NCBI GenBank assembly: GCA_963665235.2 | Contig: CAXXLX010000001.1 | Location: 4,128,001-4,192,000, forward strand | Length of the DNA: 64,000 nucleotides | Origin: Candidatus Poribacteria bacterium | GTDB taxonomy: Bacteria > Poribacteria > WGA-4E > WGA-3G | Direction: 5' to 3' | Shown: in pieces, positions 1 through 34,104 of the stretch | Numbering within the stretch: the stretch's first letter is position 1 | Layout of the letters: every line of letters begins with the position of its first letter | The notes under the pieces: model-generated | Database searches by the model: none | What the model saw: only the letters and a program-made list of their open reading frames with translations | What the model was told of the DNA's origin: nothing | Translations under genes and position numbers: made by a program

Positions 1-994
1 GCAGTATGTCGTAAACATCGCGTCCCTCTGCTTCCGCTTGTGCAATTTCCGCTTGGGCAAAGGTGTCCCTATACCATCGCAGGACTACACCGCCACTGGA
101 GACAAATCCTAACGTAACGTAAAGCCCCTCGACAACGTGCGGATAGCAAGCGAAGTTCCCATCTATCATCTGTTGATTGATGACAGGCTCTGTGAAGGCG
201 GGGGCAATACATTCAACAGTGCCTGTAGCGTCCATCACTTCGCCGCTGCGAATGATGCCTGCCCCTAACGCACCACACGGCTGGTCGTGCCCGCCGGTGA
301 CGCATACTACGCCTCGCGGAAGCCCAAGTTCATCAGCAACGGCTGTGCTCACTTCGCCTATAACAGTCCCAGAGCTTGCGGTGTCGGGTAAATGTGAGGC
401 ATCCAGATTTGCTAAACCGAGCATCTTTTCTGACCAAGATTTGTCGATAATGTCGAACGCCATGGTGCGCGCTGCGAGCGAATAGTCAACTACAGGCGAA
501 ATGCCGAGTTTGAAATAGACGAAATCCTCAAAACCGAGAAATTTCCACACCTGCCGATAGATATCCGGTTGATTCCGTTGTATCCATACCAGCTTGGGAA
601 GCGTGTGAATATCACTGGGGGGCATGCCTGTGATTTGCATTACCTCCAATGGACTTATATCTTGCAGTAGCTCATCACAGATTCCGGAGGTACGGGAATC
701 AAATGTAGTAATTGCGTTTGCTAAGATGTCGCCGTTTGCCGAAATCGGTGTAACCGCTTCACCTTGTGAGGCAACGCTAATGGCTTCAATCGGCTCTGTT
801 TTTGTTTGTGCAGCAACCTGCCGGATGCCGGACGCTATATTGTCCCAGACAACACGTGAATCCAATTCTGACCAGCCGGGTTGCGGGTGCACTAACGGAT
901 ACTCGCCGTATGCCTGTGCAAGAATTTCGCCATCCTCACGAAAAGCGATAACTTTACATCCCGTTGTGCCGACATCAATACCCAAAAGACTCAT
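1..994 (-). CDS. FGGY-family carbohydrate kinase (xylulokinase-like), runs off the window start
   Basis: Manual translation from ATG at 994 gives MSLLGIDVGTTGCKVIAF, later TGGHDQPCGALGAG; AGGAG RBS at about 1006-1010. Confidence 0.85.
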   Translation of the reverse strand, partial: MSLLGIDVGTTGCKVIAFREDGEILAQAYGEYPLVHPQPGWSELDSRVVWDNIASGIRQVAAQTKTEPIEAISVASQGEAVTPISANGDILANAITTFDSRTSGICDELLQDISPLEVMQITGMPPSDIHTLPKLVWIQRNQPDIYRQVWKFLGFEDFVYFKLGISPVVDYSLAARTMAFDIIDKSWSEKMLGLANLDASHLPDTASSGTVIGEVSTAVADELGLPRGVVCVTGGHDQPCGALGAGIIRSGEVMDATGTVECIAPAFTEPVINQQMIDGNFACYPHVVEGLYVTLGFVSSGGVVLRWYRDTFAQAEIAQAEAEGRDVYDIL

Positions 995-1104
995 AACGTT
1001 TTTTTCTCCTTGATACGGTATGTGTATATCGTATCATAAATTGTTTTTTAATGCAAAGATTTGTTTTTAAGGGGGGAGGTGTAAAGTTTTTGTACTATGA
1101 TAGA

Positions 1105-1233
1105 GGGAAGGGGGGAAGAATGGAAGGGGGGAAGAATGGAAGATTGGAAGGGTGGAAGGAGGGAAGGGTGGAAGATTGGAAGATTGGAAGGAGGGAAGGG
1201 TGGAAGATTGGAAGGGTGGAAGATTGGAAGATT
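1105..1233 (+). repeat. Purine-rich GGAAG(ATT/GGT/AAT) tandem tract
   Basis: Repeating ~8-nt GGAAGNNT units; same motif at ~43776-43820 and ~62993-63025. Confidence 0.85.
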
Positions 1234-1383
1234 GGATTTCGCAGGTGTGTTGTCTGAATCGCAGAGGACACGGAAGACGCGGAAAAAGAGGTTTGTTGCT
1301 AACATCTACGGATTTTTTTGTCTGAATCGCGGATGACACAGAGGACACGGAGAACGCGGAATTAAGACGGGGTTGGGTAAAAT

Positions 1384-17774: not shown

Positions 17775-18551
17775 TTAAGCCTTTGCGGCGGTCCCGCCAT
17801 CGACTATGAGGGCGGTACCGGTAATCCATTCGGCATCATCGGATGCAAAGAAGACGGCTGCGCGGCCGATGTCTCTTGGTAATCCTAAACGGGCAAGTGG
17901 GGTCTTTTCCAACGCTTGTTCAACCTGTTCCGGTGTGAGGTAGTCTTGAATAGCTGTCTCAATATAACCGGGGCAGATAGCGTTGACAGTTATGCCGAAT
18001 TGACCGACCTCTAATGCGGTGTCTCTGGTCATATTGACGACCGCGGCTTTTGCTGGCGCGTAAGCGGGCCCCGCACCGCCACCGTAGGCATGAACAGAGG
18101 CAATTTGAATAATCCGACCAAATTTTGAGTGTTTCAGGTACGGAATGGCGAGTTTCGTTGCGACAAAAACGCCACGCAGATTAACACTAACAACCTTGTC
18201 CCAATCAGCGATAGAGATGTCTTGTGAGCTGCCGGGAATATGGATGCCAGCGTTGTTGACTATAACATCCAGCCCGCCAAAATGTTCGACGGTTTGCAGA
18301 ATTAACCGTTGGATTTGCGCTTCGTCGGACACGTCGGTTTGGCAAAATATTCCGGTCGCTCCTAATTTCTCAATTTCTGCGACAGTTGAGATTGTGACAT
18401 TCCGCTGGTGATATTTGCCGCGAAGGGGTGTTTCCTGCTTATCTGCAATAACGATGTGTGCTCCCTCGCGCGCGAACTCAAGTGCGATGCCGCGGCCGAT
18501 GCCCGAGCTTCCGCCGGTTACGATGCAGATACGCCCTTTAAGTACCATCAA
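17775..18551 (-). CDS. SDR family oxidoreductase (FabG-like)
   Basis: TGGSSGIG, NNAG, YAPAK. Confidence 0.92.
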   Translation of the reverse strand: MMVLKGRICIVTGGSSGIGRGIALEFAREGAHIVIADKQETPLRGKYHQRNVTISTVAEIEKLGATGIFCQTDVSDEAQIQRLILQTVEHFGGLDVIVNNAGIHIPGSSQDISIADWDKVVSVNLRGVFVATKLAIPYLKHSKFGRIIQIASVHAYGGGAGPAYAPAKAAVVNMTRDTALEVGQFGITVNAICPGYIETAIQDYLTPEQVEQALEKTPLARLGLPRDIGRAAVFFASDDAEWITGTALIVDGGTAAKA

Positions 18552-19048
18552 AGTTCTCCTTAGTTCTGGTGGATTACCGGTAGTGTTATTTGCCTACGTA
18601 TACCCAAGTTGCTACTTATAAGTTTTTAGACCTGGAAACACCGTCTTTAATGAAAATATGCTGAGAATTAGCTAATATTTGTCCCGTTCACTTCCAATTT
18701 GCACACAAATATGCACAATCTGGAAGATTATGCTACTAAATATTATATCCTATTTTCCAAAATTTCTGCAACACTCTCCGCGATACGGAGGGGTGTGTCC
18801 ACTTTTCGGAGGATCAAAGGATAGGGGCAGGAATGGAGGCGTGGAAACACAAAATGACGTGTATGTTTTTTGGAGATATGCCACCGTTATAGGCCCCGCC
18901 TACGCTCAGCCCCCAAATAACCCATCGTCATTTACAAACGGTGGAGGACTACACGGGAGATTGATACATAAGTACAAAATATTTACCACCCGCGATACGC
19001 TCCTCTATTAGCAGCGTGCCACAGTTTTTAAGGTTTGGCCGCATTGCG

Positions 19049-22000
19049 TTAGAAGAAAGAGCGTCCAAGTGAACTGCCTGCCCCGAATGCATTGTAAGGA
19101 ACACCGGCCGGTAAGGTTTGGAAACCCCATGTTTCGGTAGTTGCGTCATAACCGAGTCCCATAGAAACAGCTGACTCGTCGATGAGTGTGACTTGGAAGG
19201 TAAAATCTTGTCGGACGTTATCAAATGGCGGTTCGCGTTTAATGCCAACCCGTCTCCAGGAAAGGCGAAGATTCCAGTCGTGCAAATTCCTGTTGATACT
19301 GACGCTTTGCGAATAAAATTGTCCATCAATTGGATAGTAGATAAGACTGGCATCAAATTCGAGGTTTTTACTGTGGCGGTAGCGTCCATTTGCCGTGATA
19401 GAACGCGATGCCTGAATTGAGGTGTGCCTTTTACTGAAAGAGCTTCCGAGGCTCACGTTCCACCTTTCGCGGGTGTATCGGAGGTTCGAGCGGAGCCCGA
19501 CGACTTTGAATTGTTTGCCATCGACTGGGTGTGGGTTTGGGTCATGTGTGAAGCGCACGGTCATATTTAGGTTTCGGCTTGGGAACGGGATGAGTGTGAA
19601 ATCACTCTCAATCGGTTCGTATTTGCGTCTATATAACGGATCGAATTCGGTGAAATCGGCGGTAAGGCGGGTATCAAAATAGAAGATGCGATGTGCTTCT
19701 TGACTCCGCCGCGTCTTAATCTCAAAACTTGTGCTAAAATCGTAGCTCAACCTTTTCCGTTCATAGAAATATGTACTCGGTCCAAAGGGATAGAGCGTGT
19801 CCTCTGAGTCAACAGCGGGTTGATAATTAAAGGTAAGGGTAGATTGTATTTCGTGTCGGAGCTTTCGTGCCCCGGGGATATAACTAATATTGTAGATACG
19901 GAAAAGCGTATTGGTAGCAGAGGCTCTGATACCGTACGCCCCCCCTAAAATGTTTCTATTTTTTTCTTGGTCTTTACTGTGCCAGATAAGGTTTGTATTC
20001 AAATTCAGGTTAAGTTTCAGTTCCCGCAAAGAGGTGATAAGGAGCGTTGACTGTTTACGTAGGTCGAAACCGAGGTCAAGCGTTTGGAGGAGTACATCTC
20101 TTTCCTCACGATAAACCTGCCTAAAGAAATTTCCGAATTCAATATCCATGTCAAAGCTTGTGTCTTCAAGTGTAGGGACCCTGAGCAGTGAGAGAAAAGG
20201 TTTATCGGATTTGAGTTTTTCGGAGGCGGTTAACATTCCGGTATTAATAGTTTTAAAGAGGGGGAGTGCGCTAAAACGCATCCGTGAGAAGTTGACTGTC
20301 AATTGCGGGAGTTTTTGTAGCGAAGTCGTTCCTTCGCCGGTGAAATCGTAAACGTGTCGGATTTCCAATCTGCTGGTAATATCTCCGATAGTCTGTTGAG
20401 AATAGCGCAAGTTATCATTTTCATCAACATCTTCTATGTCAAGTGCGGAGAGTGCAGAGCCGTAGGTGAGGATACCAAAGGAGTTGAGGGTAGAGTCGCC
20501 TGGGATTTGAAGGTCTTCCTTGTAATTAAGAGCCCGCCATTCTACGCGTCCGAGAAAACTGAGCGGTTTTCTTCCCGCGCCGGGTTTACTACTGTCCCAA
20601 GGCGTATAGAAAGATTGTCCGTGTCCCCAGCGTGCATTCCACCGTCTACCGATACGGGTTGCATCTCGTCTGCTAAAGGAATATTCATCTTTAGCGTAAA
20701 AGTAGAAATCACCGGTATAGGTCCGCTTTCTATCGACTTTGATGAGGTGAAACGCCTCTTTTGTTGAAATGACTCTTCGACTCATTTCGCCGCCATATAA
20801 ACTTTGTGCTTCCGATGCAACTGGTCTCGGGTCTTCCCACTGTCCACGGAACCCGTGTTTTCGGTAGACTTCAAGCTCTTCTTCTGCTGCTTCCTCACCG
20901 TTATCTTCGCCCGGTTCAGCCGTCTCGGTGCCGTTTGTGGCAGCCGTTTCCCCTTTATCAGGTTCAGAAGGCATCGGCGTAGGCTTTGCCTCTTCAGTAG
21001 GCGGTATTACTGGCTCCGCTGGCGTTGTCGGCTTCGGCTTTTCTGGCGGCGTTGGTTTAGAGTCAGGTAGGGTGTCGGTTTCCGGCTTTTCTGTTTTTTC
21101 TTCATCAGATGCAGCCATAGCCTCTGTTGAAAAAGTTTCCCATTCCGCTTCAAATTCTTCAGCGATAGCCTCAAAAGTCGGCGTTTCCTCTTTCTTAATT
21201 AATTGAAAAATGTAAAGCCCTTCAGGGGCATAGACGGGTCGGCCTTGGGTTATGTCATTAGGTTTTTCTAGGCGTCGGACCGAATACTGCCATCCGCTCT
21301 CCATTTCATTTAGGGGTAAACCTTTGCCTTCATTGATTTCAGAGAGCGTAGCTTCAGGAAATTCAGCGGCAAGTTGTTCAAAGGTTTCCTCAGCGAGAGC
21401 GCGTTCGTGAATTTTTTCTGCTACCTCGCGTAGTGTCTCTTGTGTTTCAGTGCTTGGACTAATCGCTATATCGATGCGTCGCAGTTTAATTTCGCGTTCT
21501 CCGTAAACATCAAGGGTCCGTTCAACTTTGAGGATGTGAAAAGCGGATTCGGTTTTTAAGACGGTACTAATTTCGTCTTCTTGTAGTGCAAACGCTGTTT
21601 CTTCCAAAATGGTGTCAAGTTTCGGATTGCCCTGCTGGTCCTGTTCCCCGCGTACAAGGAATCCCATATCTCCGCCCTCGTATCGGGTGTCAGAGTGGTT
21701 AGATTCGCGCTGTGCAAGACTTGCGAAGTCAGCATTTTCTTCCGTGAGTTGTTTGAGGAGCTCATCTGCTTTCTCTTTTGCCCGGTTGACATCTTCATCA
21801 TTAATCTGATATTTTAGGAAGAGTTGCTTTAGCCAGTACCGGTCGTAATCTCCTTCAAGACGTGCTTGTAATTCTTTCGCCTTGTCCTCGAATTTTGTGC
21901 GCTGGGCGGGGGTCGCTCCTGTCGGGATGGGTATGTAGATTTCTTGAAATTGTGTATCCCTGAACCGATATTTTCCTTCAAATCCGAAGCCTTGTCCGCG

Positions 22001-22987
22001 CCGGGCACTTCTGTCGTAGAGCAGCGCGCCATCATATCTCATTTTGCGTGCTAACGGTTGGATGATGCTGAAATAGGGCCCCTGGTAGCTATCCGTTCCG
22101 ACTCTAACGATAATTTTAGCCACTTTATCTTTGCGAAGGTCCCGGCGGATAGCGGGAAAATAGAAGAGCGGAAACCCGCCAATCCGTAAGACGATGTTTT
22201 TTGCAATCATCTCCTCTTTGATTCGAACAATAACCTCGGAAACGCTAAAATGGTAATGCGGATATTTTAGCGAACAGGTAGTTAGGGAAGCCCCTCGGAC
22301 ATAAGATTTCTTATCCTCTATTTTGAAGAGTTCACTTCCCCCGAAATACCACGGGTCACTGTATGTGAATCCGTTGCGTGCGATTCCTTTTTTGGTTTCC
22401 AGGTTGAAGATAAGTTCATCAGAGTATGTCTCTTCGTCCCCGACTTTGAGGTGTACGTTGCCGGATGCGCGCATCAAATTATCGTCGAAGTCAGCCCAGA
22501 CGTGGTCGGCACGCAAAATGACATTCTCGTATTTGATAAGGGCATTTCCGTGAATTTGTACCAAATTATCCACCAAAATCACCTTGTCTCCATCCCCGAT
22601 GACCGTACCTTCGGCAGGTGTCATCTTTTCAGGGTCGAGCTGTTTTTTAGCAGGTTTCTCAGGTTTGGTATCGGGAGATTCTTCTGTCTCCTCCGAAGGT
22701 GTAGGTACCGTTTGCTCTTCAGCAGGTGCCTGCTCCTCTTGGGGCACCTGAGCACTGAGGGATACTAGTGGTAAAAACAGACAGACAATCGCTATAATTG
22801 CGAGGTGCCCAACACGATTCAACCCTATAGTATGGGATGAACACGTCACGGACGGTCCACTTGTGAACTCGCCCCGTTGCATAAACCTTATCGGGTGTGT
22901 CATTTTAGAACTAGAAAGGATATCTCCGTTTTTTTGCAAAGGTTTCTCTCTTTTGTAGACGTGCTCTCGCGAGCACAACTTGCACAA
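19049..22987 (-). CDS. lptD: LptD-like LPS assembly protein with inserted parvulin (PpiC) domains; true start may be 22903 or later
   Basis: OstA-like N-domain, LTTCS..PHY, PLFYFP, barrel strands; insert with FASLAQRES..GGDMG..AFHILKV. Confidence 0.8.
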   Translation of the reverse strand: MCKLCSREHVYKREKPLQKNGDILSSSKMTHPIRFMQRGEFTSGPSVTCSSHTIGLNRVGHLAIIAIVCLFLPLVSLSAQVPQEEQAPAEEQTVPTPSEETEESPDTKPEKPAKKQLDPEKMTPAEGTVIGDGDKVILVDNLVQIHGNALIKYENVILRADHVWADFDDNLMRASGNVHLKVGDEETYSDELIFNLETKKGIARNGFTYSDPWYFGGSELFKIEDKKSYVRGASLTTCSLKYPHYHFSVSEVIVRIKEEMIAKNIVLRIGGFPLFYFPAIRRDLRKDKVAKIIVRVGTDSYQGPYFSIIQPLARKMRYDGALLYDRSARRGQGFGFEGKYRFRDTQFQEIYIPIPTGATPAQRTKFEDKAKELQARLEGDYDRYWLKQLFLKYQINDEDVNRAKEKADELLKQLTEENADFASLAQRESNHSDTRYEGGDMGFLVRGEQDQQGNPKLDTILEETAFALQEDEISTVLKTESAFHILKVERTLDVYGEREIKLRRIDIAISPSTETQETLREVAEKIHERALAEETFEQLAAEFPEATLSEINEGKGLPLNEMESGWQYSVRRLEKPNDITQGRPVYAPEGLYIFQLIKKEETPTFEAIAEEFEAEWETFSTEAMAASDEEKTEKPETDTLPDSKPTPPEKPKPTTPAEPVIPPTEEAKPTPMPSEPDKGETAATNGTETAEPGEDNGEEAAEEELEVYRKHGFRGQWEDPRPVASEAQSLYGGEMSRRVISTKEAFHLIKVDRKRTYTGDFYFYAKDEYSFSRRDATRIGRRWNARWGHGQSFYTPWDSSKPGAGRKPLSFLGRVEWRALNYKEDLQIPGDSTLNSFGILTYGSALSALDIEDVDENDNLRYSQQTIGDITSRLEIRHVYDFTGEGTTSLQKLPQLTVNFSRMRFSALPLFKTINTGMLTASEKLKSDKPFLSLLRVPTLEDTSFDMDIEFGNFFRQVYREERDVLLQTLDLGFDLRKQSTLLITSLRELKLNLNLNTNLIWHSKDQEKNRNILGGAYGIRASATNTLFRIYNISYIPGARKLRHEIQSTLTFNYQPAVDSEDTLYPFGPSTYFYERKRLSYDFSTSFEIKTRRSQEAHRIFYFDTRLTADFTEFDPLYRRKYEPIESDFTLIPFPSRNLNMTVRFTHDPNPHPVDGKQFKVVGLRSNLRYTRERWNVSLGSSFSKRHTSIQASRSITANGRYRHSKNLEFDASLIYYPIDGQFYSQSVSINRNLHDWNLRLSWRRVGIKREPPFDNVRQDFTFQVTLIDESAVSMGLGYDATTETWGFQTLPAGVPYNAFGAGSSLGRSFF

Positions 22988-23037
22988 CGCGTCATAACTG
23001 CGCGGTAATGGCTAAGCGTTTTTGAAATTACAAATAA

Positions 23038-24360
23038 TCACTCCGGTGGTTTCTGTGATGGCACCGGTTTGATTTTGATGTATGCATTTTCAAGTAGTGA
23101 ATCTGTGTAGGCAGTCCATTCCTTTTCAAAGCGTCGTTGGCGCAAAATAGTGACAATTTGCTGTTTCTCTAGTTCGGTCAATTCCGGTATATTTCGTTCT
23201 TCAAGTTTGAAGATGTGAAGTCCGGTATCAGTTTCAACGGGTTCACTGTGCTTCCCAACTGCAAGCCCCTGGATGACTTTCCTAATTTTCGGTGGGAAGT
23301 CGGTTAGTGCGCGTACGCCGAGGTTTCCGCCTTTGGCTGCGGTTTCTTTATCATCGGAATGTTCAGTAGCCAGGGTATTGAATTCTTCACCGGCTTCCAA
23401 CTTTTTGAAGAGGTCAACGATGCGTTTTCGTGCCGCCTCTATCGCCTCCTCGCTTGGAGTGAGCGGGACAGTAAGATATCGGAACGCAAGGGTTTTATCT
23501 GTTCGGGTTTCCATCATAAAAACATAGAACCCTTCAGGAGTTTCAACCGGTTCACTGATTTCGGCTGTTTTGAGTTCAGCAAGGACAGCTTGGAACGTTT
23601 TCGGAAATTTATGCATCTCTGTGAGGGAGGCTTCTATGAGTTTTCCTGCTTGCGAATTCGGATTTCGCGTTGCCTTGATATTCTGTGCAACCGTCTCAAA
23701 CTGTGTTTTATCTGTGTGAATTTGCGCCAAAGCCTTGTCGATTTTAACACGTCCAGCTTTCCGGTCAGCCTCACTCGGTTTGAATCCGACGACGATATGG
23801 CGTAAGCGGACTTTGTCGGTTTTTGTCGGAAGTTGGTCGCGGTTTTCTTCAAAAAACTTCTGGACTTCGCTGTCTCGTACCTGGAGGCGCGGCATAATAC
23901 GTCCCATGACCAATTTTTCGGTCATGAGGTTCCGTTGGCACTGCTCCCGAAATCCGATGAGGGTTGTCCCTTCCCGGTTGAGCAGCTTCTTGAATTCATC
24001 ATCGGTCTCAATTTGATACTGCTTCTTAACGTCCTGGATGTACTGTTCCACCTCTGAATCGGTGACCTCAATTTTCAGCGTCAAGGCGGCTTCAACGAGA
24101 AGCATTTGACGAATGTGCTTATCTAGTAGGGCAGCCCGTTGCTCCGCTGCCGCTTTAAGGGCTTCATCCTTGCTAAAACGGTAAGCATGTTGCAGTTCAA
24201 GGGCGCGTTGGTTGACGATAGTGTCAAGCTGCCGCTGGGTTATGATATCATCGTTGACATACGCGATGATTTTGTCAAAAATACGTGCAACCCCAGGGGT
24301 TACAAGGCTGCCGATGAGCAGTCCAATTAGTCCTATATATACAATTATTTTGGGTATCAT
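23038..24360 (-). CDS. surA: SurA-like chaperone with two parvulin domains
   Basis: FDKIIAYVNDDIIT, VRLRHIVV, HSDD..GGNLG..GLHIFKL. Confidence 0.8.
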   Translation of the reverse strand: MIPKIIVYIGLIGLLIGSLVTPGVARIFDKIIAYVNDDIITQRQLDTIVNQRALELQHAYRFSKDEALKAAAEQRAALLDKHIRQMLLVEAALTLKIEVTDSEVEQYIQDVKKQYQIETDDEFKKLLNREGTTLIGFREQCQRNLMTEKLVMGRIMPRLQVRDSEVQKFFEENRDQLPTKTDKVRLRHIVVGFKPSEADRKAGRVKIDKALAQIHTDKTQFETVAQNIKATRNPNSQAGKLIEASLTEMHKFPKTFQAVLAELKTAEISEPVETPEGFYVFMMETRTDKTLAFRYLTVPLTPSEEAIEAARKRIVDLFKKLEAGEEFNTLATEHSDDKETAAKGGNLGVRALTDFPPKIRKVIQGLAVGKHSEPVETDTGLHIFKLEERNIPELTELEKQQIVTILRQRRFEKEWTAYTDSLLENAYIKIKPVPSQKPPE

Positions 24361-24420
24361 GAGAATGCTTTCTCCACTATTCGTTTGCCTTGCCTATTTT
24401 CAGGCTAATAGATTGTCTTA

Positions 24421-24660
24421 TACCAAATTTATTTGGTTCATCGTCTTCACATACCGCCATAAACCAATATGCTATAAACATATCGTCCTTAAGAGCAGGC
24501 TGCTTGCCTGAATACTGGGACTAGCTTGTGGGGTCGTTGGGGGCTGCTATAAATATAACGCCCCTACTGGGCTAATACCAAACTTATTTGGTTCATCGTC
24601 TTCACATACCGCTCCGCTGGAGCGGAAGAGTGGAACAAGACGAATTGTGTTAATTTGGTA
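24421..24660. mobile_element. MITE with TACCAAATT/AATTTGGTA TIR and TTA target duplication; internal duplicated left end
   Basis: TTA at 24418-24420 and 24661-24663; 37-bp left end repeated at 24576; contains REP-like hairpins. Confidence 0.7.
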
Positions 24661-24746
24661 TTAGACGATAAAGTGGGGTAGGGCTGAGGTGGGACACCTT
24701 CGCCCTACGTCTCGGTTAATCGTGCGAAAACACTTTGGCTATAAAT

Positions 24747-25718
24747 CTATTCGGCCGGTTGTGTTTGCTCAGGCGGTGTTTCCTCTTCCGTTTCGGTGGG
24801 TTCATCCTCCGGAATGCGGTCAATGTATGTTTTGACTTCTGCCCGCTCGCGAAGGCGCGAGACCCACTCCTTCATGAGGGTATCGCGTGTTTGCCGTTTC
24901 ACCCGTTTCTCAACGTCCTTGCGGACATCCGCCTCATCAAAGGGTTGCTGATATTCCGCTCTGGCCTCCTCTTTACGAAAGATCATGTAGTATTTTTGTC
25001 CTTGGACTTCAACTGCAATGACACCATCATGGATAGTGTTAATTTCCGCGCTGAAAGCAGCTTCCATAAAGGGTTCAGTGCCGGGTGGATAGGAATTCCG
25101 GCTGATGTAATCGGTATCGCCTGGTGCGGCAGGATTCGCGCCGGGTCCGACCAATTCTCCTCTATCAGAGAGTTCCTGCACTGCGACTGCGATATCTTTT
25201 CCCGCTTTAATTTCAGCGAAGATTTCATCAGCTCGTTCCTTATTCTGTAGGGTGATACACAACAATCTGACCTGCTCAGGGCGGACGTAATCGGCTTTGT
25301 TTTCCTCATAGTAGCCTTTATAATCCGCTTCAGTCAAGACGAGTTTTGCGTCAACCTCCTGCGCGGTGAGTTTTTCAATCATAAGGTCGTGGAGGTAATT
25401 CTTAACCTTTTTGAGGATTTCGGTATCTTCATTCAACGCCATATCTTTTGCAAGACAGAGGATTAATCGGCTTTCGGCCATAAGCAGCATGTATTCTTCG
25501 AGCCCCGCCTTGTCTTGGTACTGACGTTGCTTATATTTGGGGAGTTCGCTAATCTCCTGCATCATCTCTTCAAGGGTGATTTGATGTTTGCCATCCCATT
25601 CGAATTCGGCAATGATAGTTTTGTCGGCACCGATTGCCTTTTCTCCACAACTGTAGAATAGGGGGTGTATGGCAAGAATCGCGATTAAAATTAGGGGTAT
25701 GCAGCTAAATTTTTTCAT
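24747..25718 (-). CDS. PpiC/PrsA-like peptidyl-prolyl isomerase-fold protein, probable lipoprotein
   Basis: Signal with YSC, YYEENKADY..EQVRL, degenerate parvulin, WVSRLRERAEVK. Confidence 0.8.
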   Translation of the reverse strand: MKKFSCIPLILIAILAIHPLFYSCGEKAIGADKTIIAEFEWDGKHQITLEEMMQEISELPKYKQRQYQDKAGLEEYMLLMAESRLILCLAKDMALNEDTEILKKVKNYLHDLMIEKLTAQEVDAKLVLTEADYKGYYEENKADYVRPEQVRLLCITLQNKERADEIFAEIKAGKDIAVAVQELSDRGELVGPGANPAAPGDTDYISRNSYPPGTEPFMEAAFSAEINTIHDGVIAVEVQGQKYYMIFRKEEARAEYQQPFDEADVRKDVEKRVKRQTRDTLMKEWVSRLRERAEVKTYIDRIPEDEPTETEEETPPEQTQPAE

Positions 25719-25753
25719 GAGTGCTATCTCCTTTCTATTAGAAGTTGCGTGAA

Positions 25754-26728
25754 CTACTTATCAGGCGTATCAGGTGCCTTCTCTGGTTCTTCTGGTTGTG
25801 CCGGGGCTGGAATGTTTTCAGGATAAGTTTTCAGTTTTCCTGCTTCAGAAATTTCGGCAATCCATGCGAGGATACGTTCGCGCTTTTTGGTGCGTTTCAC
25901 TTTTCGTTCAACCTCGGATTTGACTTCGTCAAACGCTTTCTGTCGTTCCGGTTGGTGTTCCTCCTTCCGGAAGATGAGGTAATAGGTTTCGTCTCGGACA
26001 TCCGTTTCGAAGACGACTTCGGTCATTTCGCCAATTTCTTGGGCGAAAACAGCCTCAATGAATTCGCTCCAATCAGGCGATGCGTTTATGTAAAAGAAAA
26101 ACGTGTTTCCGGGGTCGTCCTGGTTGGTGCCAGGTCCGTTTGCCAATTTGTTTTCGGCAGCGAGTGCTTTTGCGACCTCGATGATGTCTTTCCCGGCTTT
26201 AATCTCGTCCAAGGTTTGATTAGCGAAGTCCTCATCATCAAGCGTAATACAGGTTGCCCGTGCCTTTTCCGCCTCGACGTAGGTACTTTTGTGCTCCTCA
26301 TAATATGCAATAAGGTCCTCGTCTGTGTAAACGGTTTTTGCATCAACCTCCACTTCGGTGAGTTTCTCGACCATCAGTTGATAGGTGTAGTCTTCCATTT
26401 TTTCTAGATGGTCCGGCAGGGTGTCAAATTCTGCATCTTTGGCTTGAAGGAGTTTAAGTTTTTTGTCAATGAACTCCTCTAAAAATTCAGCCTTATCCGC
26501 TTTGGTAGCGAGGTTTCTCTGTCGGTACGGTGGCAATTCGGCAATGGCTGCGTTCAGGTTAGCGAGTGAAATCTGATGAGGCTCACCGTTCCAACTGAAC
26601 TCCGCTAAAATAATCGCGTTCTCATCAACTGTTTCCACAGCAGGTTCGTGGTTATCGGAACGTCCAAGAGACCAGGTGAGAAAACAGGCTGCGACAACTG
26701 CTACAACAACAATAATCGTTTTTTTCAC
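25754..26728 (-). CDS. PpiC/PrsA-like protein, paralogue of 24747-25718
   Basis: Shared IAEFxW, ELPxYxQR, CITL, GPG, YYxIFRKEE motifs. Confidence 0.8.
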   Translation of the reverse strand: MKKTIIVVVAVVAACFLTWSLGRSDNHEPAVETVDENAIILAEFSWNGEPHQISLANLNAAIAELPPYRQRNLATKADKAEFLEEFIDKKLKLLQAKDAEFDTLPDHLEKMEDYTYQLMVEKLTEVEVDAKTVYTDEDLIAYYEEHKSTYVEAEKARATCITLDDEDFANQTLDEIKAGKDIIEVAKALAAENKLANGPGTNQDDPGNTFFFYINASPDWSEFIEAVFAQEIGEMTEVVFETDVRDETYYLIFRKEEHQPERQKAFDEVKSEVERKVKRTKKRERILAWIAEISEAGKLKTYPENIPAPAQPEEPEKAPDTPDK

Positions 26729-26790
26729 TGGAGTATTCTCCTTTTAGGTATACGAGGCAACCGCTTTCGTGCTGCCCCTACGAAATATAA

Positions 26791-29700
26791 TCAGTCAGTT
26801 GCAACAAAAGGGGTTAGAATCTGTTGCAGTGCAATTAACAGGTTTTTTCCATCCAAACCTTCTATATCAATCATAAGCTGTGCGGGTGGGCGTAACTGGA
26901 GTTTTGGATTGTTATGAACCGTTTCGATAAATTGTGTCACATCAATTTTCGGTTTGCGTTCGTCAAAGGTTGCTTTGAGCTGCTTGCTTCCAGCAACGAG
27001 ACTGGTGATACCGAGCTGCTGGCTGAGTTGCTTGATGCTTGAGATTTCGAGTAGCATTTCAACCGGCTCTGGCATATCACCGTATCGGTCTTTTAGTTCG
27101 TTCTCCAATTCGCGCCTATCTGTCTCTGTCTTTAGAGCGGAGATTTTCTTGTAGATAGAAATTTTTTGTCGGCTGTCAGGGATATATGTATCCGGCAGAT
27201 ACGCTTCAATTGGCAAATTAATTCGGGTCTCAATTGCCTCCTCAACCTTTTCCCCTTTCAAACCGCGTACCGTTTCTTCAAGCAGTCTACAGTAGAGTTC
27301 GTACCCGATGGTGGCGATATGCCCGTGCTGTTCAGCGCCGAGTATGTTGCCTGCTCCGCGAATTTCTAAGTCACGAAGTGCAATTTTAAACCCGGAACCG
27401 AGGTCGGTAAATTCCTCAATGACGCGAAGTCGTTTTTCTGCGCCCTCGGTTATCGGCATATTTTCCGGATAGAAAAGGTACCCATACGCCTGCTCGTCAG
27501 CGCGCCCCACGCGTCCCCGGAGCTGGTAAAGCTGCGCTAAACCGAACGCATCCGCGCGATTAATCATGATAGTATTGACGTTCGGAATGTCGAGTCCGGA
27601 TTCAATAATCATGGTACAAACGAGAATATCGTGTTTGTGTCGGACAAATTCTAGCATGACCTGTTCCAATTCTCGTTCCGGCATCTGGCCATGGGCGATA
27701 GCGATGCGTGCTTGTGGGACCAGGTTCCGAAGAATCTCGGCAATACTTGCGATGCTCTGCACACGATTATGAACAAAGAAAACTTGCCCATCTCGTGCCA
27801 ATTCGGTGATAATCGCATTTCGTATAACCTCCGGATTATACGGCATGACATAGGTCTGAATAGGCAGCCGATTCGCTGGCGGCGTGTTGATAACGCTGAA
27901 ATCCCGAATGCCGACAAGCGACATGTGCAGGGTACGGGGAATCGGTGTTGCTGTCAACGTAAGCACGTCCACCGTCTCCTTGAACTGTTTAATCTTCTCC
28001 TTATGTTTAACACCGAATCGGTGTTCCTCGTCAACCACGAGGAGCCCGAGGTTGTCAAAGTTGACAGTGCTTGAGAGCAAACTATGCGTGCCGATGACGA
28101 TATCAACGGTCCCCTCAGCAAGCCCGCTCTTGACCGTTTGTATCTCCTTCCGGGTGCGAAACCGATTCAGCATTTCAACGTGTATCGGAAAAGGTTTGAA
28201 ACGTTTTTCAAAGGTGTCATAATGTTGGAGTGCCAGTATAGTTGTTGGTACAAGAACAGCTACCTGTCTTTCTGCCATAACGGCTTTAAAGGCAGCTCGC
28301 AAGGCGACCTCCGTTTTGCCATAACCGACATCACCGCAGATAAGCCTATCCATCGGCACCTCTGCCTCCATGTCCGCCTTAACGTCTTCGATTGCTTGAC
28401 GTTGGTCATCGGTTTCCTGATAAGGGAAAAGAGCTTCAAATTCAGTTTGCCATGGGATATCCACTGGAAAACTGTAACCTTTGCGTGCCTGCCGGGTTGC
28501 ATAGAGTTTTAGGAGGTCATCCGCCATTTCCTCTATTGCTGCCTTGGCACGTCCTTTTTTACGCTGCCAGGCTGTTCCGCCGAGCTGGTCAAGCCGTGGC
28601 GCGTAAGCCTCATCTTTGTTTCCTAAATACTTTTGCACTAACTCAACCTGATAGGTTGGCACATAGAGCCGGTCATCGTCTCTATATTTGAGGACAAGAA
28701 AGTCCTGCGCCTGTCCATCAATATCCATTCGACGGATGCCTTCATATAGTGCTATACCGTTGGAAACGTGCACAACATAGTCCCCAACCTTCAGGTCTAT
28801 CAGGCTGAGAATCGGTGCCCCGTTGTTATAACGTCTTTTCGGTCTTCCCCTGCGTTGCTGGCTTCCGAAGAGCTCGTTTTCTGAAATAACAGCAAATCGT
28901 AGTGATTCATTGAGAAATCCTTCAGAGATAAGCCCGACGCTAACTGAAACACTTTCCGGGGAAAGGTCCCGCTCCATTAACATCTCCAACACGCGCTTTG
29001 CCTGTTGTGGGGTTTCACAGTAAACTTTGATGAGATACGCCTCGGTTGTCCACGTTTTAATATGGTCAATCACCATTTGGTAATTGCCACGACCGAGCCC
29101 GAGCGGTTTCATGCCAAAGTAGAGTTCTGAAACAGATGGCGGCTGCTGGTTATCAGGTACCGGCTCATTATTTACATCGGAAACCAAGGAGATGCGGACA
29201 TTCGGATACCTCCCTAATTCGGTCTGCAGTGTGTTTGCGGGGACTAATAATGTTTCAGGTGCGGGCATCAATTTACCTTCGGTCAGTCTCCGTGAGTATA
29301 TTGTCTGCAGCTGTTCGTGCATCTGTTCAGCCTCCCTTGCCTGCCATCGGGGTTCTACGAGAACCAGAATTGTGTCATCAGGGAGATAATCCATGAGCGT
29401 CTCTGTCTCTGGGAACAGGAGCGGTAGGAAGGCTTCAATGCCATCAATTTCCGTGGGATGTTCCTCAGCTTCGGCCGTTGCCTTCACTAACCAATTTTCC
29501 AAGGATTGTGTCATATCGCGGACAGCATTTATGAGTTCAGGCGTGTTTTCGGACCCATGCATCAATCGCTTAGTTTGTGATTGCCAATGCGTGAGCGAAG
29601 CTTCTGCAAGACACACCTCGGACATTGGCGTGAGCACGACCGATGTATCGTGTTCCACAGAACGTTGCGATGTCGGTTCGAAGAGTCGAATGTCGTCAAG

Positions 29701-30405
29701 CTCATCGCCAAAAAAGTCAAGCCGGACAGGCATATCAGAGGTGAGCGGGTAGACATCTAGGATATCGCCTCGTAAGGCGAATTCTCCCTTCACTTCAACT
29801 AATTCAACCTGTCGGTATCCACCACGGATGAGAAAGGCTGTGAGTTCATCAAGTTCAATCTCATCGCCGATGCGAAGGGTTCGACACATTTTCGTTAAGG
29901 TCACGCGTAGCGGCAGTTTGTAGTATAAGGCCCGAACTGTGGTAAACACAATCTGCTGCTGATTAGGCGGTGAAGCGGTCCCTGCCTTCTCTTGATTTTT
30001 CAAGGTAAGCAGACTATGGAGGCAACACATGCGTGCAACAGTCGTGTTTTTCGCTGGCGAGATGCCATCGAAAAGGGTGTCTTGCCATGCTGGGAACAGC
30101 TGCAGTTCGGGCAGCAAGTCCCCCGGTTTGTTATTGTCCGGTTCAGCCCTCTCTCCCCCTGCCTGCGAGAGGGTTAGGGAGGAATTGTCACAGAATGCAT
30201 GGACCTCATCCAACGCCTGTTCGGCTTCACGTAGTGAAGGGTACACAATGAGAAAAGATTTATCCGGAAAATCAGATAGCAGCGTTGCCAAAAAATAATT
30301 TGTTGAGGCACCAGGTAACCCTCTAAGCCACGGCGGGTTCTCTGAATTCTCAAGGCATTTGAGGACTTTTTGATAATTTTCTGTTTTTCGTAAAATCTCT
30401 AACAC
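26791..30405 (-). CDS. mfd: Transcription-repair coupling factor
   Basis: RGDILD, GDYVVH, GDVGYGKT, DEEH, QLRGRVGR, TRCF domain. Confidence 0.97.
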   Translation of the reverse strand: MLEILRKTENYQKVLKCLENSENPPWLRGLPGASTNYFLATLLSDFPDKSFLIVYPSLREAEQALDEVHAFCDNSSLTLSQAGGERAEPDNNKPGDLLPELQLFPAWQDTLFDGISPAKNTTVARMCCLHSLLTLKNQEKAGTASPPNQQQIVFTTVRALYYKLPLRVTLTKMCRTLRIGDEIELDELTAFLIRGGYRQVELVEVKGEFALRGDILDVYPLTSDMPVRLDFFGDELDDIRLFEPTSQRSVEHDTSVVLTPMSEVCLAEASLTHWQSQTKRLMHGSENTPELINAVRDMTQSLENWLVKATAEAEEHPTEIDGIEAFLPLLFPETETLMDYLPDDTILVLVEPRWQAREAEQMHEQLQTIYSRRLTEGKLMPAPETLLVPANTLQTELGRYPNVRISLVSDVNNEPVPDNQQPPSVSELYFGMKPLGLGRGNYQMVIDHIKTWTTEAYLIKVYCETPQQAKRVLEMLMERDLSPESVSVSVGLISEGFLNESLRFAVISENELFGSQQRRGRPKRRYNNGAPILSLIDLKVGDYVVHVSNGIALYEGIRRMDIDGQAQDFLVLKYRDDDRLYVPTYQVELVQKYLGNKDEAYAPRLDQLGGTAWQRKKGRAKAAIEEMADDLLKLYATRQARKGYSFPVDIPWQTEFEALFPYQETDDQRQAIEDVKADMEAEVPMDRLICGDVGYGKTEVALRAAFKAVMAERQVAVLVPTTILALQHYDTFEKRFKPFPIHVEMLNRFRTRKEIQTVKSGLAEGTVDIVIGTHSLLSSTVNFDNLGLLVVDEEHRFGVKHKEKIKQFKETVDVLTLTATPIPRTLHMSLVGIRDFSVINTPPANRLPIQTYVMPYNPEVIRNAIITELARDGQVFFVHNRVQSIASIAEILRNLVPQARIAIAHGQMPERELEQVMLEFVRHKHDILVCTMIIESGLDIPNVNTIMINRADAFGLAQLYQLRGRVGRADEQAYGYLFYPENMPITEGAEKRLRVIEEFTDLGSGFKIALRDLEIRGAGNILGAEQHGHIATIGYELYCRLLEETVRGLKGEKVEEAIETRINLPIEAYLPDTYIPDSRQKISIYKKISALKTETDRRELENELKDRYGDMPEPVEMLLEISSIKQLSQQLGITSLVAGSKQLKATFDERKPKIDVTQFIETVHNNPKLQLRPPAQLMIDIEGLDGKNLLIALQQILTPFVATD

Positions 30406-30408
30406 GAA

Positions 30409-31257
30409 TTATTCCTTGCTATTTACGATTTCAATTTTTTCTAACGTTGCTGTCGTTTTTCCAATTTTGGTTTCCGCCTCAATTTTGATAGGGAGATGAC
30501 GCGCGTCATCGGTTAACCAGAGCTTACCCCCATCTGAGGTTCGGACCAAGAGTGTTTTGACTCTCATTTTGTTTTTACCTAAGGCTTTAGTTTCTAACAT
30601 CTCTCCTCGTTCAACCGTGAGTTCCATCTTGCGCAATTCACCTTTTATAATTAGCGGAAAGAGGTAGGTATTCCCGGGGGCTATCTGCTTAGTGCGCAAG
30701 AAGTATACCATAGATAGTTCGTCTTGCGTGCCAATTGGAATCTCTATGTCCTTTTTATCACGTTTTTCTGGCGATTTTGGATTGTTCTGCGACCGTTTCT
30801 CATATTCCGCCAGCCCTTCCCGAAAATTAATTTCAACGAAAGCTCTATACTTTTTATCTTGCACCTGATTTCTAAAACGGAGTGGATGGAATCCTACAAC
30901 GTTGAGAAAGGTAGACTGATGACTTCGAAAATGATACCATCTCGCCCACGCTCCGGTTTTTGCATCAGAACTGATGTGGTAAACTCGCTGCCCATTCCAC
31001 AACATCGTTTTCCGGATATAGTCCACCCGTTTGCCGGCTGAAATCCGTCTGACCTTGACATTGTAAGTCAACTTCTCACCCACTCGGAGGGGCTGTTCGG
31101 CAACGTTTTCAACATTAACAAGTGAAATCGCTTCCCCTTGCTGATTGCTGGATAATCCGTTTTTAGCGGCTAGGTCTGCCCGGATAACTTCGGAAATTAA
31201 CAGACTCATCCCTATTAACAGAATCAGCGTTAAGTACTTGGGATATTTCACATTCAT
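30409..31257 (-). CDS. DUF3108-like exported protein
   Basis: Signal peptide, GEKLTY, QDELSMVYFLR, WLTDDARHLPIKI. Confidence 0.75.
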   Translation of the reverse strand: MNVKYPKYLTLILLIGMSLLISEVIRADLAAKNGLSSNQQGEAISLVNVENVAEQPLRVGEKLTYNVKVRRISAGKRVDYIRKTMLWNGQRVYHISSDAKTGAWARWYHFRSHQSTFLNVVGFHPLRFRNQVQDKKYRAFVEINFREGLAEYEKRSQNNPKSPEKRDKKDIEIPIGTQDELSMVYFLRTKQIAPGNTYLFPLIIKGELRKMELTVERGEMLETKALGKNKMRVKTLLVRTSDGGKLWLTDDARHLPIKIEAETKIGKTTATLEKIEIVNSKE

Positions 31258-31301
31258 CCCTCCAGAAGATTACTCACTAATTTCAGGTTTCTGATTCGAT
31301 T

Positions 31302-31904
31302 TTAAAACCGGTGTGTAAACATCAGTGCATGTGTTCCGTTCAGAGTTTGTTGCATCTGGACAGAAATTCTTCGATGGTTATAGGCTTTAACCGTATGTGA
31401 GGCATCCAGAATATTCCAGACATGCAGTCCAATGCCCGTGATTAGAAAAAGCGCGCCCCGGAGACTACGATCCCTCATTCTCGCTTGAACCTGATTACTG
31501 TCTAAGAAGCTGTCTGTCCGTTCATCATAGAAGCCTGTTTGAAAAGCGTCGTGGTTTCTGTAGTGTAATGCACGTGCGATGTTGTATCCCGCCAGTGCAA
31601 AAACACCCAATTCAGCTGTGAGAAAAAGCGTGGCTTTCGTGTAATTGTCCGCATAAGCTTGCCCTAAACCGGGCATAGCTGCGGATAAAAGTGCCGCTTT
31701 TCGGGGACTCCGTTCCGGATAATATCGGGCTGCGTGTGCCCGAAAAAGTGGATACACCGTTGTTTCTGGCTCGGCGCGGGACATCTCCTGACGCGACACC
31801 GGTTTCTGCCCCTGCGGCGATGGCTCCTCAAGCGAGAATACCACGGTTGGTGTGTAAACTACGGTCAGTAGGACAATTAAGAAAAGCATGCGGTAATTTT
31901 TCAT
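31302..31904 (-). CDS. DUF5683-like membrane/exported protein
   Basis: SPRKAALLSAAMPGLGQAY, WNILDA; ATG 31904 preferred. Confidence 0.65.
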   Translation of the reverse strand: MKNYRMLFLIVLLTVVYTPTVVFSLEEPSPQGQKPVSRQEMSRAEPETTVYPLFRAHAARYYPERSPRKAALLSAAMPGLGQAYADNYTKATLFLTAELGVFALAGYNIARALHYRNHDAFQTGFYDERTDSFLDSNQVQARMRDRSLRGALFLITGIGLHVWNILDASHTVKAYNHRRISVQMQQTLNGTHALMFTHRF

Positions 31905-31989
31905 AAGCTCTCTTTTGAGTTGCACATTTTTAGGGCACCGCTCACTTGAATTTACAAGGTTATTTGACAGATAACGGGCCTCTGTTTTT

Positions 31990-32805
31990 TCAACGGGGCA
32001 GGGCTGGTGCCAATTGTACATTCTCCGATTCGGTCTGGTATGCCCAATCAAAAATGACAGCATCGTCAGAAACCTCATGCACATGAATCTTAGCGAAGTT
32101 GTCATCAGGCGTGTTGATAACGTAGATATGGCCCCGAATAAGCTCAATAAATCCATCTATATATCCATCTTCCGGTGCCAAATCGACCGCGGTGAATGTT
32201 TCGTGGTATCCCATATCTTGCATAAAGGTTTCGTTATCAGAATAGAGATAAAAAACGGTGATGTCATCATTCACAGTGCCAATACCGAAGTAAACATCAG
32301 TGGCAACACTGTCCCAAGGGATAGCCCCTTTATAGGGATGTGAGAAGTCAAATCCGCTTCGGCCTGGGTAGAGGTCGTATGCCTCTAATCTAACGTTTTG
32401 CCCTTCCGGTCGTGGCGTATCCCATACATTTTCAGGGCTGAGGCTGCTCTGATTACCATCGAAATCGTAAGCAGAAATAGCATAGTAATAAGTTTCGCCA
32501 TTCCGTACATCTTCATCTATATAGTGTGTGGCTCCTGCCGATAGTTCTGCTAAAAGTTCAAAATTTCTGGCATCTTCACTACGCCACACCGAGTACCCAG
32601 ATAAGTCGTACTCACTGTTTGGGTACCATTCAATCCGAACGTTCTCATCTCCTGTGATAGTTGTAAGCCCACGTGGCACAGCAGGCGGTTCAATATCGTC
32701 AGCACCGCTGGGGGCCCCAGTGTTATCAACATAACAACTCGTTAGCATTACGACTCCGATAACACACAGAAATTTCACCAAGCAGGCATTAATTTTTGAA
32801 AGCAT
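31990..32805 (-). CDS. Lipoprotein with fibronectin type III domain
   Basis: Lipobox LTSC, PPAVPRGL, W..DLSGYSVWR, YYYAISAYD..S. Confidence 0.8.
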   Translation of the reverse strand: MLSKINACLVKFLCVIGVVMLTSCYVDNTGAPSGADDIEPPAVPRGLTTITGDENVRIEWYPNSEYDLSGYSVWRSEDARNFELLAELSAGATHYIDEDVRNGETYYYAISAYDFDGNQSSLSPENVWDTPRPEGQNVRLEAYDLYPGRSGFDFSHPYKGAIPWDSVATDVYFGIGTVNDDITVFYLYSDNETFMQDMGYHETFTAVDLAPEDGYIDGFIELIRGHIYVINTPDDNFAKIHVHEVSDDAVIFDWAYQTESENVQLAPALPR

Positions 32806-32901: not shown

Positions 32902-34104
32902 CTAAAGCAAGGGGGATTCTTTTGAAAGTGAATCCCATGCTCTCTGGTGCGGATTGTGGGGTATAGACTTCGGGTGAAGTCTGCGAGGGCTGCTCGCAAT
33001 AGCAAGGCTGACATCCTCTAATCCAAAGGTTGACACCCCAACCTTTAAAATATTTATGGCAGCGTTAACGTCCCGATGATGTTTCTGATGGCAAGTAGAA
33101 CAACACCATTGACGAACAGACAAGTCCAGCTGCTGTTTTCGCTGTCCACAGTGGCTACAAGTCTTAGAAGTCGGTTCAAAACGGTCAATATAGTGAACCT
33201 CTTTACCGTGTTTGACCGCTTGATGTTGCAACTTTTGATGAAACGAGTAGGGCGCAATATCAGAAACTTGACACCCCCACAACCGTTTCATTCCCTCAAA
33301 AGTCAACGTCTCAAAACAGAGGTGATCTTGTTCATGCACAAAACGCTTCGCGAGTTTCCAATGGTGGTCTTCACGTTGTCTCTTGATTTTACGGTGTTTG
33401 CGCGCCACATTTAAGCGGGAACGCTCACAGTTGTTGCTACCCTTTACTTTCTTAGCATGGGCACGTTGTGCCACAGACAAATCCGCCATAGAGGTTTTAT
33501 AGAACTCAGGAGACGCATAGGCTGTGCCATCGGAACAGGTGAACATCGTTTTGATACCGAAATCATACCCTGCAGCACTACCCGTCTTAGGTAGGATTTC
33601 AGATACCGTGTCATCTGTTACAACACACATATAGAAGTCACCAACGCTATCTGCTTTGATAGTGACTGTCTTAATATTACCTACTATCTCGCGGCTTAGA
33701 TTAAACCGATATTGTTTTTCCATTATACGGACCCTATCACCATAGAAACTATAGCCAGAGGGGGACATTGTGAATGAATACGGTTTGCGCCATGAACGAA
33801 ACTTAGGCGGACGCTTCGCAATACACTTAAAAAAACGCTGATACCCGGTGTCTAAACGCCGCAGTATATCACGCGCCGCCCAAGAGTCTAACTCACGCCA
33901 ATGCGAAAACACTTCAGGATGTGAGTTCCTAAGGACGGTAAAGGCACGCGACATCTCAGGAAGCGACATATACGCAAGACCAAGAGAATAGCGCGTCCGC
34001 TGCCAACCTAAAAAATAGTTCCAAACATCATGGGCCACCCACGTTAAACGCTTGAGATTACGATTACGCGGGGCACGAAAAAGTTTGTATTTTGTGGTAT
34101 ACAT
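32902..34104 (-). CDS. tnpB: RNA-guided endonuclease TnpB
   Basis: RuvC GYDFG, CFETL, HRDVNAA; zinc finger CSHC..CSTC. Confidence 0.93.
   Translation of the reverse strand: MYTTKYKLFRAPRNRNLKRLTWVAHDVWNYFLGWQRTRYSLGLAYMSLPEMSRAFTVLRNSHPEVFSHWRELDSWAARDILRRLDTGYQRFFKCIAKRPPKFRSWRKPYSFTMSPSGYSFYGDRVRIMEKQYRFNLSREIVGNIKTVTIKADSVGDFYMCVVTDDTVSEILPKTGSAAGYDFGIKTMFTCSDGTAYASPEFYKTSMADLSVAQRAHAKKVKGSNNCERSRLNVARKHRKIKRQREDHHWKLAKRFVHEQDHLCFETLTFEGMKRLWGCQVSDIAPYSFHQKLQHQAVKHGKEVHYIDRFEPTSKTCSHCGQRKQQLDLSVRQWCCSTCHQKHHRDVNAAINILKVGVSTFGLEDVSLAIASSPRRLHPKSIPHNPHQRAWDSLSKESPLL

Follow-up and report, generated by a model that had tools for sequence, protein, structure and literature searches.

LptD is the outer-membrane beta-barrel that places lipopolysaccharide (LPS) into the outer leaflet. 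Folded domains within the strand order of such barrels are exemplified by the ushers of chaperone-usher systems, in which two consecutive barrel strands flank a plug domain that lies in the lumen and acts as a gate. The available portion of one study (PMC3747590) describes LptD as the most SurA-dependent outer-membrane protein in E. coli, and assigns the chaperone activity of E. coli SurA to its N- plus C-terminal core, its parvulin domains being largely dispensable and regulatory or peptide-binding. Two accessory lipoproteins of E. coli, LptY and LptM, are described in the accessible part of another (PMC12644819) as stabilising the N-terminal beta-taco of LptD and modulating a hinge between contracted and extended states. 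Here we analyse a gene of a Candidatus Poribacteria bacterium (assembly GCA_963665235.2, contig CAXXLX010000001.1) whose product is an LptD with three parvulin domains built into its barrel. The gene is on the minus strand of a stretch of 64,000 nucleotides (positions 4,128,001 to 4,192,000 of the contig), and this whole stretch, in whose numbering all positions are given, is called the window.

The sequences on both sides of the parvulins form one LptD. A profile built from 110 sequences, of this family and of LptDs, matches the solved LptD chain 7omm with an E-value of 5e-39 (profile positions 16-701, chain positions 59-771) and also matches the solved LptD chains 8h1r (E 4.5e-39) and 5iv9 (E 2.8e-32), as well as solved LptA chains and LptD N-domains, which align to the beta-taco region. 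An AlphaFold2 (AF2) model of residues 126-1312 was built from a 110-row alignment, the N-terminal stretch being omitted owing to a limit of 1200 residues. This model, with a mean predicted local distance difference test score (pLDDT) of 80.3 and a predicted template modelling score of 0.66, contains a 12-strand jellyroll at residues 130-283 and 26 barrel strands, and strands from both flanks close the barrel. The best Foldseek matches in the PDB are LptD structures, namely 4q35 (5.8e-19), 8h1r, 5iv9 and 7omm, with E-values from 1e-15 to 6e-19 and target-normalised template modelling (TM) scores of 0.49-0.59. Because these alignments cover about 1200 columns, both flanks lie in one barrel.

Curated family models respond weakly to this protein. 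PRK04423, the NCBIfam model for LptD, aligns to residues 132-348 (E 3.8e-6) with 25 bits, below its cut-off of 944, and Pfam LptD_2 (PF19838) aligns to residues 940-1065 (E 3.8e-4) with 19.7 bits, below its cut-off of 22.5, reaching 23.3 bits once neighbouring matches in the frame are summed in a scan of the genome. OstA_2 is weak in the beta-taco (E 0.0037), and Pfam LptD (PF04453) has zero matches genome-wide. Membership in the LptD family therefore stands on profile and fold evidence, with scores short of the curated cut-offs, and on that evidence the gene is the organism's LptD, with the beta-taco and the 26-strand barrel retained. Translocation of LPS by this parvulin-bearing LptD is its predicted role.

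An earlier note, made from the sequence without database searches, had proposed that the flanks are two consecutive LptD strands normally joined by a short turn, and that the insert between them is an outer parvulin that is begun, interrupted by two further parvulins, resumed, broken by a linker and then completed. All the motifs that it named are found, and the insert corresponds to residues 343-756 (414 residues), or exactly positions 20720-21960. In the profile alignment the flanking strands pair with two strands that directly follow each other in the solved LptD 8h1r, and in the AF2 model the insert lies between the fourth and fifth of the 26 barrel strands (b1 to b26), a placement also borne out by Foldseek. 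DSSP assignments for the model give b1 at residues 293-299, b2 at 303-314, b3 at 318-327, b4 from 331, b5 up to 769, b25 at 1238-1247 and b26 at 1259-1268. At the insertion columns, 47 LptD representatives without the insert have 12-36 residues, compared with 318-476 in 63 insert-bearing sequences.

The insert consists of two complete parvulins (P-A and P-B) nested in a third, discontinuous parvulin (P-C), between whose helix 1 and helix 2 they are inserted. In the domain scan that the earlier note had suggested, Pfam Rotamase (cut-off 21.7 bits) matches P-A at residues 386-499 (E 5.2e-18, 66.3 bits) and P-B at residues 500-603 (E 8.7e-5, 23.9 bits). P-A also matches the PrsA parvulin 2jzv in the PDB (E 5e-8), and P-A and P-B align with each other by hhalign (E 1.9e-11, probability 97%). 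The C-terminal part of P-C matches Rotamase positions 63-96 of 97 at residues 718-752, below the cut-off (E 0.011, 17.1 bits), and hhalign aligns it with the final part of P-A (E 1.8e-6, probability 90%). Residues 343-385, the N-terminal part or P-C(N), align in register with the beginnings of both P-B (E 1.2e-4, probability 55%) and P-A (E 7e-4, probability 26%). In more distant lineages no linker breaks the segment that follows P-B, and the classical helix-2 and glycine-loop motifs (YS...GGxxGY) are present in it. This unbroken piece in homologue P0125 matches Rotamase positions 35-97 of 97 (E 1.4e-11, 45.6 bits), and is thus a parvulin without exactly the first strand and helix. We infer the parvulin fold of P-C from the order of its DSSP elements and its hhalign register rather than from a domain-level superposition, and Pfam, AF2, the P0125 match and hhalign agree on the nested layout that the earlier note had read from the sequence.

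When modelled separately, the insert has a pLDDT of 81.7, with values above 90 in the folded parts, including both halves of P-C. Foldseek relates it to a SurA-like two-parvulin peptidylprolyl isomerase (PPIase; 8hm4, 6e-11), to SurA (1m5y, 4e-6), and also to PpiD, PrsA and Pin1. In the AF2 model, b4 and the first strand of P-C form one continuous strand (331-353), the last strand of P-C and b5 form another (745-769), and a long hairpin of 482-494 and 497-508 links P-A to P-B. This arrangement indicates that the array is mounted on a beta-hairpin stalk, not on a flexible tether. The linker at residues 630-702 has a pLDDT below 50 both in the full-length model and in that of the insert, and it is absent from P0125, P0127 and P0128. 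Neither SurA_N, SurA_N_2 nor SurA_N_3 has a match at E <= 0.1 anywhere in the LptD-parvulin protein, and an ESM Atlas look-up of the insert returned generic parvulin clusters only (score 0.93), with no free-standing nested triple parvulin.

Strand parity suggests on which side of the membrane the parvulins lie. The periplasmic taco leads into b1, so even-to-odd connections should be periplasmic, and the b4-b5 turn has this parity, which agrees with the periplasmic turn predicted in the earlier note. In the C-terminal half of the model, even-to-odd turns have 2-6 residues, and odd-to-even loops have 4-20, mostly 8-20. The b24-b25 connection of LptD, which has the same parity, is called a periplasmic turn in the accessible part of PMC8983717. 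According to the AF2 strand order, the insertion site is at the periplasmic rim, three strands away from the b1/b26 seam, which would put the insert close to this seam and to the taco-barrel hinge. A complex prediction that paired the beta-taco (126-290) with the insert (343-756) scored 0.00 (mark 0.32), a value that speaks for binding as little as against it.

The architecture is phylum-wide in Poribacteria. Of 176 Poribacteria genomes, 174 have a match, among them all 133 of high quality, and the two misses are drafts that are 81% and 90% complete; many single-contig genomes of 4-7 Mb have the same architecture. A word-indexed protein search gave 369 matches among 8000 candidates scored, of which 120 were listed. 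These 120 homologues have 1229-1417 amino acids and all contain Rotamase; NCBI names exist for six of them, and each of these is Candidatus Poribacteria. We also searched 1.84 billion representatives exhaustively, and the following applies to the best 150 of 3285 matches. An LptD N-terminal part is combined with parvulins in the top clusters only (P0123-P0130 and P0133), and matches to typical insert-free LptDs (~630-840 amino acids) cover only query residues ~15-220. None of 19 long LptD representatives outside the family (815-1303 amino acids) contains Rotamase, and these proteins have extra OstA-type N-domains instead. P0133 is a partial protein labelled Gottesmanbacteria that groups with Poribacteria sequences, and its label is presumably a binning label.

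The deepest families of the phylum preserve the arrangement. All 15 of their genomes have one contiguous match over the taco, b1-b4, P-C(N), P-A and P-B, and in 11 both halves occur in one frame of 1120-1329 amino acids; in the other four, which are drafts 64-88% complete, the match is split across frames or contigs. When compared with six homologues reaching down to 32% overall identity, P-A, P-B and P-C are 26-81% identical and the barrel is 29-77% identical, versus 0-30% for the linker. Residues E349, I350, G442, F605 and A609 are invariant in 65 of 65 sequences. A second parvulin is present in the b10-b11 turn, another even-to-odd turn like b4-b5, in the deep-branching P0128 lineage (P0128/P0285) and in genomes of the other class, e.g., G001 (C5:60583-60942, L027). 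This parvulin is circularly permuted, with Rotamase positions 33-96 first and strand 1 and helix 1 last.

Public contigs were compared with the two junctions of the insert. One contig from an RNA library of another study (X8) bridges the junction at 20719/20720, although contigs are no proof of transcription. Another contig (X2) spans the junctions and may itself be the source of the window. Among the contigs listed for X5, none bridges either junction by 31 letters, with record 6 reaching 28 letters past 21960, and none of the pieces listed for X6, for which 18 further pieces exist, bridges a junction. The architecture, which the earlier note did not recognise as described, appears to be undescribed: full-text literature searches, whose scope leaves out supplements and subscription journals, found no description of an LptD with parvulin domains. 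The sequences themselves are public, in records that name the homologues "peptidylprolyl isomerase" or "hypothetical protein".

A dual-histidine motif is the usual criterion for catalytic parvulins, although catalysis does not strictly depend on it. Where the first histidine would stand, P-A has Q388 or L389, P-B has R504 or I505, and P-C has E349 or I350, so none of the three domains keeps it. The second is found only in P-A (56 of 65 sequences), the corresponding residue being tyrosine in P-B (63/65) and arginine in P-C (57/65). Judging by these residues, the insert is probably non-catalytic. A further difference concerns the conserved cysteine pair of LptD, one member of which belongs to a TTC motif of the taco and the other to an LHCW motif located at the b24-b25 turn. 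C238 (22274-22276) is the only cysteine of the mature protein, and its barrel partner position is D1237 (19277-19279), so the usual taco-barrel disulfide cannot form. The barrel cysteine is replaced by aspartate in 55 of 63 insert-bearing sequences, compared with 45 of 47 insert-free LptDs that have a cysteine there, and both cysteines of the pair are present in 45 of the 47. Alignment thus suggests that the usual interdomain disulfide is lost in most of the phylum.

In the model, the b4/b5 hairpin lengthens on the predicted periplasmic side, and its strands become the first and last strands of P-C. We propose that the parvulin array serves the translocon itself, as a non-catalytic protein-binding or scaffold module on a beta-hairpin stalk beneath the barrel rim. 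Such a module could hold or dock the LptD polypeptide during its slow folding, could provide a docking site for assembly partners such as SurA, BAM or LptE, or could steady the taco-barrel junction. That the array binds or scaffolds without catalysis, in the assembly of the translocon or at the taco-barrel junction, is the likeliest reading, to which we would give an even chance. LptY in E. coli may offer a precedent for accessory stabilisation of the beta-taco, as far as the accessible text of PMC12644819 describes it. The earlier note had suggested a built-in chaperone or scaffold, and these two parts fared differently. A scaffold or binding module is better supported than a built-in SurA, because the insert has no SurA_N and hence no SurA core, a complete surA gene is upstream, and the first histidine is absent in all three domains. 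We also think that the module does not act as a free-standing prolyl isomerase.

Several points weigh against the binding or scaffold role. The related genomes, which belong to uncultured organisms, are non-independent observations, and the side of the insert rests on strand parity, not on viewed coordinates. P-A retains most of the parvulin motif residues (S429, GGD(L/M)GF and H484), so isomerase activity is possible. By analogy with SurA, whose parvulins contribute little according to the available portion of PMC3747590, parvulins by themselves may be weak chaperones. Moreover, the lineage that retains the disulfide pair (5 of 63 sequences; the P0128/P0285 lineage) carries the insert too, from which it follows that the insert did not arise as a disulfide replacement.

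The insert could instead be a general folding factor that is tethered to the outer membrane and acts in trans, as chaperone or isomerase, on outer-membrane or periplasmic proteins, with LptD as a mere anchor. P-A plus P-B are collinear with P1 plus P2 of the neighbouring SurA (23% identity, E 7e-7), the closest folds are SurA-like PPIases, PpiD and PrsA, the motif of P-A is mostly retained, and the three further parvulin genes at the locus suggest a folding-factor neighbourhood. Nevertheless, we find this explanation unlikely, given the missing SurA N/C core, the absent first histidines and the degenerate state of P-B and P-C, and also because a complete SurA and two more parvulin proteins are already encoded alongside. 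In addition, a rigid hairpin mounting at a defined turn and a second parvulin in another turn point to a role tied to LptD. Another possibility is that the insert works mechanically in LPS transport rather than in biogenesis, bracing or gating the taco-barrel hinge and the lateral gate, as interdomain disulfides and LptM/LptY do in Enterobacteria. Stabilisation of the beta-taco and modulation of the hinge by LptY and LptM in E. coli (in the accessible part of PMC12644819) lend this idea some plausibility. The location three strands from the b1/b26 seam at the periplasmic rim is consistent with it, and so is loss of the barrel cysteine in 55 of 63 insert-bearing versus 2 of 47 insert-free sequences. 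However, the lineage with both cysteines also has the insert, and we know of no parvulin fold that serves as a brace; a mechanical role seems rather improbable to us.

Since periplasmic turns may tolerate insertions, the insert might also be an evolutionary passenger without present function, and both its highly variable, disordered linker and its length, which varies from 318 to 476 residues, would fit. This is quite improbable, because the folded domains and the barrel show similar conservation among lineages as far apart as 32% overall identity, 174 of 176 genomes retain the insert, and motif columns are nearly invariant, including the five residues identical in 65 of 65 sequences. The earlier note had named misassembly as a danger, and an assembly or gene-calling artefact could in principle join a parvulin gene into lptD. 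We found nothing in favour of this and consider its probability negligible, since the frame is uninterrupted, single-contig genomes and 11 of the 15 deep-lineage genomes show the same architecture in one piece, the RNA-library contig bridges the downstream junction, and the modelled barrel is closed by strands of both flanks. Returning to a binding or scaffold module that serves LptD, a more speculative extension, which we regard as doubtful, is that parvulins were recruited into at least two LptD turns (b4-b5 phylum-wide, b10-b11 in one deep lineage), making a self-contained translocon. Its built-in domains would handle assembly at BAM or movement of the hinge and gate, and would replace the jobs of soluble SurA, the disulfide lock and LptM/LptY.

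The genome (5.3 Mb in 4 contigs, 92.6% complete) encodes further components of LPS synthesis and transport: LpxC (E 1.2e-86), LptF, LptG, an LptA-like protein and an LptE homologue that scores above its Pfam cut-off (E 7.5e-7). Searches of this genome with the protein, PF04453 and PF19838 identified the frame described here as its sole LptD-like gene, and a second, canonical LptD was not found. We also considered that the insert might replace LptE, which is ruled out by the LptE homologue. Coordinates of the features are collected in Table 1. M36, at window position 22882, is the likely start codon, as judged from the length of homologue P0002 (98% identical, 1277 amino acids). The tail that follows b26 forms two short strands of lower confidence in the AF2 model. 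It is 28-83% identical to the six homologues, exceeding the barrel in four (58-83%) and about equalling it in the two most distant (28%).

On the minus strand the gene order is mfd, two Rotamase_2 paralogues, surA and lptD, which places four parvulin-containing genes in a row. In 7 of the 15 deep-lineage genomes, a SurA-like frame (E <= 1e-5) immediately precedes the LptD match on its upstream side. Positions 18400-26900 contain 15 promoter-like sites (9.9 +/- 3.0 expected) and 11 terminator-like sites (10.8 +/- 3.1 expected), and neither count helps in defining an operon.

Table 1. Positions of the LptD-parvulin gene, its parts and neighbouring genes in the window
Feature	Window positions	Strand	Residues	Size	Basis or remark
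LptD-parvulin gene, whole open reading frame	19049..22987	minus		1312 aa from TTG	Stop codon 19049-19051
Putative signal peptide	22748..22882	minus	36-80		Hydrophobic stretch with SAQ at end, as read by eye from the translation
Pro/Glu/Thr-rich stretch of low complexity at the N-terminus of the mature protein	22613..22747	minus	81-125		Translation
Periplasmic beta-jellyroll ("beta-taco", OstA/LptD_N-like)	22118..22612	minus	126-290		PRK04423, OstA_2, AF2, profile matches to solved chains
Barrel strands b1-b4	21962..22117	minus	291-342		AF2 DSSP; alignment to solved LptD
P-C, N-terminal part (strand 1 and helix 1)	21833..21961	minus	343-385		AF2 strand 331-353 and helix 360-377; hhalign
Parvulin P-A, complete	21500..21832	minus	386-496		Pfam Rotamase, PDB 2jzv, AF2 pLDDT ~90
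Parvulin P-B, complete, degenerate (without GGxLG motif)	21185..21499	minus	497-601		Pfam Rotamase; hhalign
P-C resumed, helix 2 (TPTFEAIAEEF...)	21101..21184	minus	602-629		AF2 helix 605-631
Disordered Pro/Glu/Thr-rich linker inside P-C	20882..21100	minus	630-702	~73 aa	pLDDT, conservation
P-C completed (strand, helix, last strands)	20720..20881	minus	703-756		Pfam Rotamase (partial), hhalign, AF2
Barrel strands b5-b26	19178..20719	minus	757-1270		AF2 DSSP; LptD_2; profile and fold matches
Helical periplasmic b10-b11 turn	20162-20275	minus	905-942	38 aa	AF2 DSSP
Conserved C-terminal tail after b26, GRSFF at end	19052..19177	minus	1271-1312		Translation, AF2
surA	23038..24360	minus		440 aa	Directly upstream of lptD; SurA_N_3 E 6e-16, SurA_N E 2.5e-10, Rotamase x2 E 6.5e-33
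Rotamase_2 paralogue	24747-25718	minus		323 aa	
Rotamase_2 paralogue	25754-26728	minus		324 aa	
mfd	26791-30405	minus			
DUF3108 protein and DUF5683 protein	30409-32156	minus		282 aa and 284 aa	Upstream of mfd
TnpB-type transposon-associated nuclease	32902-34104	minus		400 aa	OrfB_IS605 E 5e-20, Cas12f1-like TNB E 2e-20

Parvulins that are welded into LptD throughout a phylum provide a natural, testable system for what parvulins do for an LptD client. Models of folding by BAM are constrained by a 26-strand barrel that bears a folded, three-domain insert of about 400 residues in a periplasmic turn. The extension of a barrel hairpin into the adjacent edge strands of a parvulin, together with a permuted parvulin at a second site, is also a clean example of insertion into a barrel. 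Finally, because Pfam LptD misses these proteins and they are named as PPIases or hypothetical proteins, LptD would be wrongly recorded as missing from Poribacteria in automated pathway surveys.

The closest described relatives are the proteobacterial LptDs (4q35, 4rhb, 5iv9, 7omm, 8h1r), which likewise have an N-terminal jellyroll, a 26-strand barrel and a C-terminal tail. Homology extends from end to end, and LptE, the rest of the Lpt pathway and the adjacency to surA are kept. However, the Poribacteria protein has a 414-residue insert of three parvulins where insert-free LptDs have 12-36 residues, has an aspartate in place of the barrel cysteine of the interdomain disulfide, and is undetected by PF04453 and weak with LptD_2. 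SurA (1m5y) and SurA-like PPIases (8hm4, from Bacteroides) share with the insert both tandem parvulins and the nesting of domains within another domain. Unlike SurA, the insert lacks the N- and C-terminal chaperone core, and the host of its nested pair is itself a parvulin; moreover, SurA is soluble, whereas the insert is covalently embedded in a membrane barrel. LptY (YedD) and LptM, which act from the periplasmic side by binding and stabilising the beta-taco or lateral gate of LptD (accessible part of PMC12644819), are possible functional analogues, although they are separate lipoproteins with unrelated folds, that of LptY being lipocalin-like. The arrangement of the Poribacteria protein, in which a folded domain lies between consecutive barrel strands, is also that of the usher plug, but the plug is a lumenal gate, whereas the three parvulins of this LptD are predicted to reside in the periplasm.

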